Assembly: GCF_009931435.1 (NCBI RefSeq)
Contig: NZ_CP043414.1
Source of the DNA: Escherichia coli
Lineage (GTDB): Bacteria > Pseudomonadota > Gammaproteobacteria > Enterobacterales > Enterobacteriaceae
Reading direction: 5' to 3' (one strand)
DNA: 64,000 bases
This document shows positions 15,001-21,000 of the stretch, piece after piece. Within the stretch, counting starts at the first letter, position 1; each line of letters opens with the position of its first letter. The position numbers are program-made.

Positions 15001-18000
15001 CCTTTCAGCGCAATTAACTGCTCTTCGGATACCCATTTGCCGGGAGAGACAATCATGATTACTTCGCTCATCGATTTCTTTATCTCTTACATCAGACGAG
15101 CGCCGGTTGCAGAATACCAGTCACAACCGGCGACAGTTGAACATTAAGAATCAGCCTGACTCGGGATCAGTTTTTGCCAGATAGCTGAAACGCATTTTGC
15201 CTGGTAACGGGCGTCATCAAGTGCATTATGGCGCTCACCTTCGAATGGAATAGCCGTTCTGGCATCGAAGTCTATGGCTTTCCCCAGCTCAACGATTGTG
15301 CGTACATCGCGATCGTTGTAGTAACGCCACGGGCAGGGGATCCCCTGCCGTTCGTATGAACGGCGCAAAATCGTGTTGTCGAAGTTGGCTCCATTTCCCC
15401 AGACCTGAACAAAAAATTCACCGGAGTTTTCGTCGATAAATTCCCGCAATTGTAACAGTGCATCATCTAACGGGATTTCATCGGTCATAATGGCAGATTG
15501 CGCTTCGCGTGATTGTTTAAGCCACCATTTAATGGTGTCCCGATCAATGACTCCGCCAGCAGTTTCCAGATCGATAGTCTTACTAAATTCCGGTCCCATA
15601 TCTCCGGTTTGCGGATCGAAAAATATTGCACCTATTGAGATAATCGGGGCATCGGGATTTTTTCCCATGGTTTCAAGGTCGATCATCAGATGAATCCCCG
15701 CTCTGCTGGTGGATGTGAGATTATGATGACCGTTCGCCTTAATTAAGGGATCTGACGCCTCGCCAGTTTCACTATCGCTGGCATGATGCTGATTGCCGCC
15801 AGTGTTCTCCTTGTGCTGATGCGCAGTGCCTTCCATTTCCTCCGGATCATTTTCCTGAACTTCAGGCTGATTCTCTCCATCGAATATTTCCTGGTATGTT
15901 GCGTCACCCATCACCGCACCACAATCAGGGCAGTTGCCGCCACCGCTATGACCGCAGGCGGTGCAGATCTTTTCCGGTTCCTGTTGCACTACTGGTTCAG
16001 GTTGTTTCGTTTCTGGCTCGTTTTGTTGCGTATTTGGGCTGTTTTGTTCCGCTTTCTGGTCGTTCTGTTCCGTTTCTTGCTGGTTCTGGTTCACAGAATC
16101 GCGGGTCTGGATCCCCTTAACCCATTTCGGATCATTCGGGTCGCTAATCCCTTCAACAAATTCACCACGTGATACTGCAAGCAGTTCATCGGCGTCAGGC
16201 TGGCTGATATTGGCTGCCTGCATAATTTTGTTTACTTCGTCAGCGGTAACTTTTACTGACCCTGGTTGTGCGGTCGTGTCAGATGCACCAGTATTTTGTT
16301 GTGAACCTGAGTATGTACCGTTTTTGCGGGCGAAATATTCTTCTTTCGTGATTTCAGTAGCCCCAGCAGACAGCGCCTTATCCAGACCAGAAAGTTTGTT
16401 TGCGCGACCGTATTTTTCGCCATCCTTGTCGGTGAAGAGGAAGTAGAACGGCCCCTCACGTTCTACAGATGGTTCGACTTCCACTTTGCATTCGGTTTTT
16501 TCGTTGTCTGGAATTGCCGTTTCCACTGCATCAGTTTCTGGTACTGGCGACGAGAGAGTATCAGTTGCGCTCTGATTTGTTCCTTCATCTTCAAACACGC
16601 CCTTTGTAGTCAGGTATTCAGTAATGTATTTGTTCAGTGCCACAGGGTCTTTGTGAATGTCGATCGGACGTTCACGGACAAGGCCAAAAATAGTCTGGCG
16701 GTCGTAGCGAAGGGCATCAGGCTGTTTGCGCATTGATGCCGAGATACGCTTCCAGTCTTCGCGGTCGTTGTCGATAACTTCATTTTTTGCCCAGCGATGG
16801 ATGCTGCCGTCAATGTTTCCGGCATCTACATCACCAGGCCAGAGAGCGTAGGCCAGTTCGTCATCCAGTGTTTTCCATGTCTGCTTGTATTCGCGATGAA
16901 TGGCAGCAATGACCGGGTTGATTTTTCCTGTTGAATTTTCAGTGTGCTGTTGATTGGCTCTGGCGCGGGCGAGATCAACAACAGACGTGTATTTTCCGGC
17001 TTCCTTGCGTTCACCTTCGCGACGTTTTTTCCAGATGCGCATCTCTGCCTGAATTTCGGGCCATTTGGCACCAGGCTTACATTTATGCTTAACCCACCCG
17101 ATGGCATGCAGCTTAAGCTCCGGATACATAGCGTTAACTTCTGGCATTTTCATCAACGCTTCAACGATATGGCCGTCGAATGTTGCCATGTCTTCCTGCA
17201 ACAATTCCTGTGCGCTAATCACCATATCAACAGTGATGTTTTCACATGTGTGGAACTTAACCATGACAGCGTTCTGTACTTCAGGGGCTAGGTTGTCAAA
17301 AGTGACGTTCATCGGATCGGATTCAGTCTCGACCGGGACAAAGGAAGCAGACGCCTCATCCCAGCGGTTTTCCTGCATATATTCAGCATCCCAGGAATCG
17401 AGGGCAGGGCGGGGTATACCGGGTTTATCCTCGCAAACAAGAAATTTATAAGCGCAGTCCTGAGCAGCCGGATAATGTTCCAGGAATTGCCAGTGAAATT
17501 TTGCGCGGGCGCGACGTTCATCACCGGCTTCAATGGCAGTGGCTACAGCGACGGCACCTTCTTCCTTTATTGCCTGTTCGTCCGGAATGGCGGCGCAAAT
17601 AAAGACTTTACTCATTTTGTTTTACCTCATTACAGATTTAAGGGTGAACAAATCCCTGCCATTGCTGGCATATAAGAATGAAATCGGATGTTTATTACGG
17701 AACTGTTTTAAAGACCTGCCGGGATTTCGTTATTATCCTGGTGAATAACTTTATCGACCGGGTAACAGTTACCGGGAATTTTCTGTTCGGTTGCTGCAGT
17801 CACACACTCCTGCATTGTCCTGTGAACACTGACTGCAATATCAACTGGCTCTCCGGAAACAAGAAAAACTGTCAGAACAAGTGCAAATGCTGTATTCATT
17901 GCCAGCATCCTTTTTGTATCGGACGTAAACGGGCCAACATTGAAAGAATGCATATTTTATTTAATAGCTCCCGTTCGTGTTTTCTCTTGTTAATGGCATC

Positions 18001-21000
18001 TTCAGTAAATACAGGGTTACTGATAGTGACACCAATTTCAAAACAACCTTCAGACGTATTAACGTTTGGTAATAACGTTTCCATTATCGCGTCCTCAACA
18101 ATGAATTTTGTGATGCGGTGCCTGGTGCTTCCAGGTGACGTTAACCAGTTAACAATTAACGCCGGATACAGAGAATCCACCCATAACACTGTTTTTGGTT
18201 TTAACTGTTCCGCGTGCGCTCAGCCGCATTCACCGCATCACAAAATTCACTTTAAAAAGGGCGGCAGAGCAGTCACGGAGTAAAACTGATACCGCCAAAC
18301 GTCACCAGAAAATTGATAACAGAGGGCGTTGCAGCGGGGTTGTCACTTAAGCGTATGGTCAACCTGACAACCCGGTGTCCTCAACGGGGGAAGGAATAAC
18401 CCCGCCATACTTACCGCCGCGCCATTTCGCGGATTGCCACAACCGGAAGCGCACGGTCGACGAAAATTTAACGACAGGCTATCTATGAACCAGCTACCTC
18501 GCCGTGCGCTTTCGCGTTATGGTCTGACTTTTCAGGGAAATATCCTTTCAGTAAACTGTCAGTGCCGGATGCTCACCCGTGTCCGGCGCAAGCACTCCAC
18601 CTTACCCGTGGAGAACTCCTTAATTACCAACCTTAGCTTCGTTGGTTAGCTATTAACGCGGGTATGTAATCATTCTGGCAATGGTTAATGCCGCTGCTTT
18701 TTCCAGATTGGTGATATCCTGCTCCAGAGAGGACAGATTTTCAGCCTGCTTAGCCCTGACTTCATTAGCCCATTTCAGATCCTGCGCTGCATTAATTTTC
18801 TGGTGCATCCACTCATAAAGTTCATCATTGGTATAGTCTGGCGCGATGATGACGGGTTCTCGTTTCTGCATACTGATTCCTCGCGGTGCTGTTTCGCTTA
18901 TCAGCCATTAGATTTTGCCGAACTGGAAAGCGCCTGTTTAAATTCGTTGAAGCTGTGAGCTTCTTCGCCTTCGGCAAGGCCTTCGAAGTATTCTTCGTAA
19001 GCCTTTTCCATGATTGTGTCGAAATCCATATCACCCACCTGAATTTCTTTCCAGCCAGCGACGCGCTCCAGATTCGGTTTTAAACGTTTTGCTTTTGGTA
19101 TACGTCATTGCGGTGAACGTACCGTCCTGGTTGGGGAACACGCCACATACCAGAGATTCGCTGTTGCCAAGATTGATAGTATCCATGCTGACCTCATTTC
19201 CCCTTAACGCCGGGGTAGCGGAACAAAAACCTGCTGCATAGTTATTAAAGTTGTACCCTGCCGTCATGTTCTTACGCCTCGGGCTGGCTACTTAACCCCT
19301 GACCACTGCCTGGTAACTCGAAGTATTGCCCTGCATTCTGTGGAGCGGGGTGAGTTGGTATGAAAAGAAGGATACCCATAGGTATTTAAAAAGTAAATAC
19401 CCATGGGTGACTTTTTGCAGTGTCTTAACTGGTGACTAGTTGTTTGGTGAGCTATGATGCGTTTTGTGCTTTCTTTTTACGGATTTCTTCGTAGATCATA
19501 TTGTAATACTGTTTTTTCTCTTCAAGAGTTTTTAATAAGTTATCCGCTTCACTTTCTGGCAGTTCGTCTAAGAGATCTAAAAAAATACGTTGTCGTGGCG
19601 TTAGAACCCTTGTTTCATAACTGGAGGCTGTGTTCGTTGATGATGAAACGATACCATCCATCCATCCCCGGGGTAACCCAAAGGACTCTTCGATAATCTC
19701 CACCATATCATCAGCGATCCGTTTTTTTCCCTTTTTCCCCTCTGGGTACAACATTCTTGATACATAAGAAGGCTCGCGCCCGATCTTTCTGGCCACGTTA
19801 ACCGCTTTACCATCGCATTTCTCATCACGAATTTTGATGAGTTGCTGTCGTCTAAATTCATATTTGTCCATAGGTAAATAATAGATGCGATTACTGCAAG
19901 GTAAACAACCTGTGGGTATTGACTTTTGTTTACCTGTAGGTATTCTTTGCTGTGTTTACTAAGGAGTAGCTATGGAAGAATTAAGAATATTTCTCAATTC
20001 TCTTTCGTCAGATGAACAGCGTATGTTTGCATGCGAGTGTGGTACCAGCATCGGTTATCTAAGAAAGGCATTGAGTAAAGGTCAAGTGTTAGGGGCATCG
20101 TTATGTGTCCTTATTGAGCGAGCCAGTAATGGTGAAGTTACACGTCAGCAACTAAGGCCTTTTGATTGGATGAATATTTGGCCCGAGCTGGAAGATACCA
20201 AAACGTTAACACAACCACTTTCTAGGAGCTTGATTCATGAAAATCAAGCATGAACACATCCGCATGGCGATGAATGCCTGGGCGCATCCGGACGGTGAAA
20301 AAGTTCCGGCAGCTGAAATAACCAGGGCTTATTTTGAACTGGGTATGACGTTCCCAGAACTGCATGACGACAGCCATCCGGAAGCCCTGGCTCGCAATAC
20401 CCAGAAAATTTTCCGCTGGGTAGAGAAAGACACCCCTGATGCAGTTGAAAAAATTCAGGCGTTGTTACCAGCGATCGAAAAGGCAATGCCACCTTTGCTG
20501 GTGGCCAGAATGCGCAGCCACAGTTCAGCTTATTTTCGGGAGCTGGTGGAGACGCGGGAGCGACTGGTGAGAGACGCTGATGATTTTGTCGCAGTGGCAA
20601 TCGCCGGTTTCAATCAGATGAACCGTGGTGGCCCGGCAGGAAATGCTGTGGCAGTGCATTGAGTGATAATAGCCATATCGAATCGCTTCCGGCAACTCGT
20701 GAGTAAAAAGATTCGGTATCAGAAGAGGTGAGTATGGCTAACGCCTGGCTCAGATTATGGCATGACATGCCAAATGACCCTAAGTGGCGAACAATTGCCA
20801 GGGTGTCAGGGCAGCCAATTGCAACAGTGATGGCAGTGTATATCCACCTCCTGGTGAGCGCGTCACGAAATGTCACGCGAGGTCACATTGATGTCACGAC
20901 AGAAGATTTGGCAAGTGCGCTCGACGTGACAGAAGAGGTAATTGATTCAATTTTGCAGACGATGCAGGGGCGGGTACTTGATGGTGATTTAATCACTGGA

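Follow-up and report, generated by a model that had tools for sequence, protein, structure and literature searches.

A dicB-dicF division-inhibition cassette adjoining a non-K-12 immunity region in a Qin-type prophage of Escherichia coli

The dicBF cassette and its leader

The sequence analysed here, a 64,000-nucleotide stretch (64 kb) of Escherichia coli contig NZ_CP043414.1 (assembly GCF_009931435.1) referred to below as the window, contains a prophage in which the dicB-dicF (dicBF) division-inhibition cassette lies next to an immunity region that differs from the dicA/dicC region of the K-12 Qin prophage. All coordinates are those of the window. A module had been placed at 17708–20662 in a first-pass annotation, and these limits coincide exactly with the stop codons of ydfD and ydaT. 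The open reading frame (ORF) listing and an Rfam scan gave the minus-strand order ydfA-ydfB-ydfC-dicF-dicB-ydfD, from 19186 to 17708.

The first gene of this operon, ydfA (19031–19186), specifies a DUF1391 protein which is 92% identical to K-12 YdfA and 84% identical to YdaF of the Rac prophage. It is followed by ydfB (18901–19029) and ydfC (18653–18871), the products of which show 95% and 93% identity, respectively, to their K-12 counterparts. The dicF small RNA gene (18259–18311) is situated between ydfC and dicB inside the polycistron. It matches the full Rfam model RF00039 (positions 1–52; 76.7 bits, gathering threshold 48, E-value=3.6e-15) and is identical to the K-12 gene at 53/53 positions; both 50-column alignment blocks over dicF are 50/50, and the flanks are 98–100% identical. 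The near-identity to K-12 that had been claimed for both DicF and DicB is therefore borne out for the RNA and overstated for the protein. DicB (17896–18084), a cell-division inhibitor, is recognized by NCBIfam model NF049927 (132.7 bits, cut-off 100) and is 88.7% identical to K-12 DicB (55/62 residues), with the changes clustered mostly in the C-terminal ten residues. The next gene, ydfD (17708–17899), specifies a DUF1482 lysis protein according to the NCBI annotation pipeline (PGAP), with 93.7% amino acid identity to K-12 YdfD. In K-12, DicF is freed through processing by RNases E and III and represses ftsZ (PMC10448788); the identical RNA of the window would be expected to be processed and to repress ftsZ in the same manner.

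The spacer between dicF and dicB (18052–18264) shows 80% identity to nucleotides 7250–7416 of a Rac locus (L003), just upstream of kilR and by the annotated kilS small RNA. Rac has kilR and kilS in place of dicB and dicF, and from the likeness of the spacers and the conserved flanks the DicB/DicF and KilR/KilS pairs seem to occupy one and the same slot. A minus-strand match of this spacer to STnc100 (RF02076) fell short of the gathering score, with 38.7 bits against 47, and is not claimed.

BLASTN analysis revealed 95.6% DNA identity to K-12 Qin over positions 16849–19224. The resemblance is real and well beyond chance. It breaks off sharply at 19224, at a distance of 38 bp upstream of the start codon (ATG) of ydfA, where a column-by-column alignment passes from 48/50 to background. 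This point falls within the predicted transcribed leader of the operon (19187–19364, minus strand), as delimited by BLAST boundaries at 19224 and 19362–19364. The part from 19187 to 19224 is common to K-12 Qin; the remainder (19225–19362) is absent there and present in Rac and in most other immunity types, which makes the window leader 138 nucleotides longer than that of K-12. In Rac, this segment of approximately 138 nucleotides (minus strand) is kept at 85–98% upstream of ydaG. It is matched in 3703 of 5426 complete E. coli genomes, a far wider spread than that of any single immunity type; this and the following genome counts are approximate, because they rest on at least 80% coverage and the best place per genome. 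A possible structured RNA in 170 nucleotides of the leader (19187–19356) was dropped, the fold z-score being 0.78 and no Rfam family matching.

The repressor, its neighbours and the predicted operator sites

Upstream of the cassette, and co-oriented with it as dicA is in K-12, lies a gene for a 139 amino acid protein (19452–19871, minus strand). Its RefSeq name is 'hypothetical protein' in every locus inspected and no Pfam family matches it. The protein is, however, matched end to end by phrog_5736, 'transcriptional regulator' (E-value=4e-70). Residues 1 to approximately 75 are 64–82% identical to the N-termini of LexA-family CI repressors of 221–242 residues which possess a Peptidase_S24 domain, and this region shows 65% identity over 86 residues to the cI protein of phage mEp043 (TBLASTN). 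The S24 domain (PF00717) of these relatives is absent from the 139-residue protein. Its tail (approximately residues 86–136) is instead homologous to residues 84–131 of DicA, with an hhalign probability of 97.6% (E-value=3.8e-12, 48 columns) and, in register, 33% identity by BLASTP (E-value=2e-6). The NCBIfam DicA model NF007257 gave 23.9 bits, below its cut-off of 101, and aligned over model positions 81–131 only (E-value=3e-5). A profile of the N-terminal domain showed no detectable similarity to DicA (hhalign probability 0.06%). No dicA or dicC DNA was found in the window, in which DicA matches by TBLASTN only the C-terminal tail of the 139-residue ORF.

An AlphaFold2 model of the protein (predicted local distance difference test score, 84.8) has a four-helix N-terminal domain, a disordered linker (residues 77–87) and two C-terminal helices. 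The top Foldseek match was the Rep protein of SPC32H from the Rep-Ant complex (PDB accession number 5d50), a weak match with an E-value of 1.2e-3, followed by lambda-repressor-like helix-turn-helix (HTH) proteins with target-length TM-scores of 0.6–0.7 over 66–75 columns; none reached E≤0.001. A direct sequence search of the PDB returned only chance-level matches to ADAR Z-alpha domains (E-value=0.08), and the fold search told more. To judge from these alignments and the model, the protein is a chimeric prophage repressor in which a disordered linker connects a DNA-binding domain of the mEp043 cI type to a helical C-terminal tail of the DicA type. Since this tail stands where the relatives have their S24 self-cleavage domain, the repressor is probably not inactivated by RecA-stimulated self-cleavage. 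In its short length, lack of S24 and helical C-terminal part it resembles the Gifsy/DicA class of repressors (Lemire et al. 2011, cited in PMC10448788) as well as SPC32H Rep; the structural match to the latter is weak, as noted, and no cognate antirepressor was identified here, where Rem only was sought. DicA of K-12 is a short repressor which is not cleaved through RecA and is relieved by the antirepressor Rem (PMC10448788).

We consider it quite unlikely that the tail of approximately 50 residues is a portable module which is carried on at least two unrelated DNA-binding domains (HTH_3 in DicA and the mEp043-cI type here) and has replaced the S24 autoprotease in the second. If it were, and if the tail mediated oligomerisation or induction by Rem-like antirepressors, urea or heat, heteroimmune prophages sharing the tail could be co-induced, and one signal could fire the dicBF cassettes of all of them together without the SOS response.

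The divergent gene on the other side of the repressor (19972–20253, plus strand) codes for a 93 amino acid, YdaS-like regulator of the Cro type. Its homologs include the 'antirepressor protein Cro' of PDB entries 8c7k and 8co2 (E-value=1.2e-10) and phrog_35 (E-value=4.8e-23), and PGAP named it 'YdaS family HTH protein'. The match to YdaS itself is weak, and PF15943 gave 25.8 bits against a gathering score of 30. No similarity to DicC was detected by BLASTP (E-value=1.4), and the P22_Cro family (PF14549), to which DicC scores 44 bits, is unmatched by the 93-residue protein. The first-pass annotation had held that the repressor and Cro do not resemble DicA and DicC. This is correct for the Cro protein; the homologous tail means that for the repressor it holds for the DNA-binding domain only.

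As had been noted, a YdaT-like gene follows. The 141 amino acid YdaT protein (20237–20662, plus strand) matches PF06254 (39.6 bits, cut-off 21) and YdaT of prophage CP-933P (PDB 8bt1; E-value=5e-80), and is nearly identical to a protein from strain CFT073 (PDB 3c4r; E-value=1e-90). YdaT of CP-933P has been characterised as a CII equivalent, with the operator consensus TTGATT-N6-AATCAA (PMC9986795). The only exact occurrence of this consensus in the 64 kb is at 20230–20247 (TTGATTCATGAAAATCAA), where it spans the start codon of ydaT. The right-hand junction of the exchanged unit described below is located at the same place. The next gene (20734–21804, plus strand) specifies a replication initiator or replisome organizer, as indicated by phrog_3729 ('replication initiation protein', E-value=1e-255) and PGAP ('phage replisome organizer protein'). 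Its earlier assignment to DUF1376 was not upheld: no Pfam family matched at E≤0.01, and the likeness to YdaU is confined to the last 19 residues.

The divergent repressor and cro-like genes are separated by a gap of 100 bp. Promoter scanning and motif searches defined a right operator (OR) region at 19878–19946, in which three palindromes (19891–19904, 19906–19919 and 19930–19943) overlap a PRM-like promoter on the minus strand (19905–19878) and a PR-like promoter on the plus strand (19919–19946). When the window was searched with the 14-bp palindrome ATACCYAYRGGTAT, allowing two or fewer mismatches, only four sites were found in the 64 kb, all of them in the two expected intergenic regions. 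Two are the OR sites at 19906–19919 and 19930–19943, and two (19372–19385 and 19397–19410) form a left operator (OL) region between the repressor gene and ydfA. The OR site at 19891–19904 is a fifth, weaker palindrome of the form WTACC-N4-GGTAW. The OL pair covers the −35 hexamer, the spacer and the −10 hexamer of a putative PL-like promoter on the minus strand (19369–19410), in which TTTACT (19397–19392) and TATCCT (19374–19369) are 17 nucleotides apart. Transcription of the dicBF operon would start near 19362.

The same motif accompanies homologous repressors elsewhere. In mEp043 and in two Yersinia and two Salmonella loci, the gene for a homologous repressor occupies the cI position and diverges from a small gene of the cro type, and WTACC-N4-GGTAW occurs three times in the repressor-cro gap with the same spacing as in the window. 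Except for one Yersinia locus (L016), each of the five also has two motifs downstream of the repressor gene, and in mEp043 these two overlap what is annotated as a putative PL. Immunity regions of the other types examined lack the motif, and the DicA operators of K-12 are of a different, TTAG...CTAA type as against TACC-N4-GGTA in the window. These observations suggest that the palindromes are the operators of the 139-residue repressor at OR and OL. In other respects mEp043 differs: its cI protein has 228 residues and an S24-type C-terminal half, its PL operon starts with N and not with ydfA, and it has a lambda-type CII and an O replication protein.

The arrangement points to control of the cassette by the repressor. 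Bound to its palindromes at OR and OL, the protein would shut off transcription of cro, ydaT and the replication gene as well as that of the dicBF operon, and its inactivation would allow the polycistronic transcript to be made. In K-12 the corresponding promoter, dicBp, is a PL analogue under DicA repression (PMC10448788).

Several observations weigh against this account and the exchange discussed below. The hexamers of the PL-like promoter agree with the consensus at only 8/12 positions, and the promoter scan did not pick them up. That scan did report a terminator-like hairpin at 19408–19374, which is formed by the OL pair, so that the repressor transcript could additionally end there; as a separate terminator the hairpin was discarded, being simply the two OL palindromes pairing. 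One of the OL sites reads GGTGA in the window and GGTAA in four sister loci. No Rem homologue was found in the window (best TBLASTN E-value=0.39), other antirepressor families and the other prophages of the genome not having been searched. The approximate nature of the genome counts belongs here too.

The altered OL site is the promoter-distal palindrome (19397–19410), which is ATACCCATGGGTGA in the window and ends in ...GGGTAA in L002, L004, L006 and L013. The substitution is among the very few differences from a strain with 99.9% identity, and the dicBF operon could be less strongly repressed because of it.

Variants of the repressor gene are also known. Proteins P0012–P0018 (135–136 residues) begin as does an alternative-frame ORF of the window (MNLDD..., 19601–19861) and continue in the repressor frame, the switch occurring after an A-rich run (19715–19745, repressor codons 43–51 approximately; GGGAAAAAGGGAAAAAAACGG). 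Several genomes therefore have an A7-tract frameshift which destroys the repressor DNA-binding domain. Such variants, the RefSeq name, the lack of a Pfam match and the weakness of the PL-like promoter would all fit a decayed or unrelated ORF that is not a functional repressor, with dicBF silent or otherwise controlled. We regard this as very unlikely. The full-length match to a family of transcriptional regulators and the mEp043 cI DNA-binding domain speak against it, as does the identical repressor (WP_000362155.1) in all three loci checked (L002, CFT073 and SBF22), with the immunity DNA present at 80% coverage or more in 821 genomes. Furthermore, both of the positions at which operators would be expected contain the cognate palindromes, and from genus to genus these vary together with the domain. 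For this protein the analysis supplies a candidate name, prophage repressor, and an operator motif.

Exchange of the immunity module

The dicB-to-ydfA cassette was found in 2254 of the 5426 genomes, often in several copies. The K-12 junction (dicC-dicA-ydfABC) was present in 737 of them and the ydfC-to-cro junction of the window in 444. Among the cassette-bearing loci sampled, at least five types of immunity region adjoin ydfA. DicA and DicC are present in K-12, L009 and L010; the 139-residue repressor with the YdaS-like Cro in the window, L002, CFT073, L006 and L013; a 112-residue LexA-family protein with a Cro/CI protein in L005 and L008; RacR with an HTH protein in L011; and a full-length, 238-residue S24 CI with a Cro/CI protein in L012. 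In all sampled loci the next gene is of the YdaT family.

The positions at which homology to these loci begins and ends recur. On the left the boundary is at 19224 for the DicA type and at 19362–19364, which is the predicted transcription start, for three other types and Rac. On the right it falls at 20231/20232 in four loci, at the ydaT start codon and the exact YdaT operator. Further recurrent junctions were seen at 20651, where the end of ydaT marks a swap of the replication module, and at 17611 and 21742. The exchanged unit is thus about 0.9 kb long, roughly 19363–20231, and comprises the PL-like promoter with its two predicted operators, the repressor gene, OR and the cro-like gene.

An alternative to exchange is that the regulators are DicA and DicC which have diverged vertically, by fast evolution in place. 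The gene order and orientation are those of K-12, in which the repressor gene is likewise co-oriented with the cassette, cro is divergent, and a YdaT-type gene follows; the K-12 gene specifies YdfX, a truncated YdaT-like protein with 37% identity to YdaT of the window, and the two layouts are therefore syntenic. The homology between the last 50 or so residues of the repressor and the tail of DicA may be read in the same way. Gradual divergence is, however, effectively refuted. DNA identity drops from approximately 96% to undetectable within a few bases, and the same junction coordinates are seen with three further immunity types. The DNA-binding domain has no profile similarity to that of DicA while its relatives, 64–82% identical, are fused to S24 in other phages, and neither Cro nor the operators correspond to those of K-12.

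The cassette forms, with the exonuclease gene, a left-hand block that is a conserved module, and it has very probably been joined by recombination to a non-K-12 immunity module, as the first-pass annotation had proposed. The pattern is the classic one of lambdoid phages, modular recombination at linker sequences that are conserved, and an immunity swap beside dicBF is ordinary, textbook lambdoid mosaicism which had been demonstrated for dicBF by 2016, CFT073 and APEC O78 included. The present analysis adds the chimeric make-up of the repressor, its predicted operator motif and the precise limits of the exchanged unit. The pairing of dicA/dicC with dicBF known from K-12 is one of at least five repressor types beside the same toxic cassette. 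In view of this number and of the frequencies of the two junctions, what has been learned about regulation from DicA (Rem, urea, heat) does not necessarily apply to most strains.

Prophage setting and relatives

Matches to K-12 rspA, rspB and the intQ remnant were found at 12213–14664, and the late region of K-12 Qin is matched by 24707–29308 (BLASTN). A 99.9% identical locus in strain 2024CK-00188 (L007) is placed between rspB and a truncated ydfJ and is intact for the integrase, excisionase, exonuclease, replication, Q, lysis, head and tail genes. On these grounds the window prophage is an essentially full-length, lambdoid prophage which is related to Qin and occupies the attachment site of Qin (rspB / int ... 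ydfJ').

A distal gene of the early-left operon (15144–17615, minus strand) specifies an 823 amino acid exonuclease (named as such by PGAP) which contains a PF16473 domain (Rv2179c-like 3'-5' exoribonuclease, E-value=6.6e-67). In K-12 the same gene survives as the pseudogene ydfE, to which the 5' part of the intact window gene can be aligned as far as the point of insertion of IS2. Excisionase and integrase genes come after it in the same minus-strand block. Between 13505 and 17615 both the integrase (431 residues) and the exonuclease are intact in the window and are represented in K-12 by pseudogenes only, intQ and the IS2-interrupted ydfE. With its rspB-ydfJ site in common, the prophage looks like an undecayed Qin, and the locus offers a view of that state; its significance beyond annotation is small.

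It could be argued that the cassette is domesticated by the host and kept by selection in a dead prophage, as was argued for K-12 Qin, and is not a working early operon. Its presence in 2254 genomes, often in multiple copies, would accord with this, as would the work of Balasubramanian et al. (2016; PMC5069750), who argued for a benefit to the host and at the time did not find either dicB or dicF in any sequenced phage. The intact gene complement of the 2024CK-00188 prophage, from int, xis and the exonuclease to replication, Q, lysis, head and tail genes, points the other way. The cassette is also now known from sequenced temperate phages, namely Tritos, mEp460_ev081, Evi and the PPompW phages, and mEp460_evo81 is a functional phage with the cassette (PMC10448788). 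We therefore judge domestication to be somewhat unlikely and prefer to see in the cassette part of a working early operon. None of these phages carries the immunity type of the window, which was found in 0 of 50,697 sequenced phage records; among phage repressors the nearest are cI of mEp043, by its DNA-binding domain only, and CI of Tritos, with 39.5% identity.

Compared with K-12 Qin, the prophage has in common the attachment site, the cassette (with dicF identical) and the repressor tail, and differs in the DNA-binding domain of the repressor, the Cro protein and the operators as well as in the longer leader. Its replication genes, integrase and exonuclease are intact, and homologs of RelBE, FlxA, YdfV and Rem, which K-12 possesses, were not found in the window by TBLASTN. 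The arrangement in strains CFT073 and APEC O78 is in essence that of the window. In CFT073 the repressor is identical and positions 17611–22252 are matched at 96.3% DNA identity, with a different integrase and integration site. APEC O78 is 99.8% identical over 17000–22500 save for an insertion of IS2. Both strains were listed among those with Qin-like prophages in PMC5069750, Figure 9 of which concerns the genes flanking dicF and not the immunity switch. The racR-ydaS-ydaT region of Rac and the PaaR2-YdaS-YdaT system of CP-933P resemble the window in that a divergent repressor is followed by a YdaS-like Cro and by YdaT, the equivalent of CII, and in the exact YdaT operator consensus; the leader and the 5' end of ydaT are common with Rac in DNA. 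The repressor of the window is neither RacR nor PaaR2, and there is no paaA2-parE2 toxin-antitoxin pair.

Two stretches of the window, 26053–28697 and 34868–45562, could not be aligned to the closest genome, 2024CK-00188. Approximately 10.7 kb of the late region is thus extra or replaced relative to that strain, and the first of the unaligned stretches is partly similar to K-12 Qin. A DUF5677 protein of 345 residues (22486–23523), which may be the product of a cargo or defence gene, is specified between the DUF977 gene and hokD, in the position taken by relBE, ydfV and flxA in K-12 Qin. Rfam matches above the gathering score were obtained at 23941–24115, 27593–27985 and 30496–30881. One, of 110 bits, represents the sok antitoxin RNA beside hokD; the other two, of 159 and 114 bits, are thermoregulator leaders of the cspA type, which are expected for the csp genes of a Qin-type prophage.

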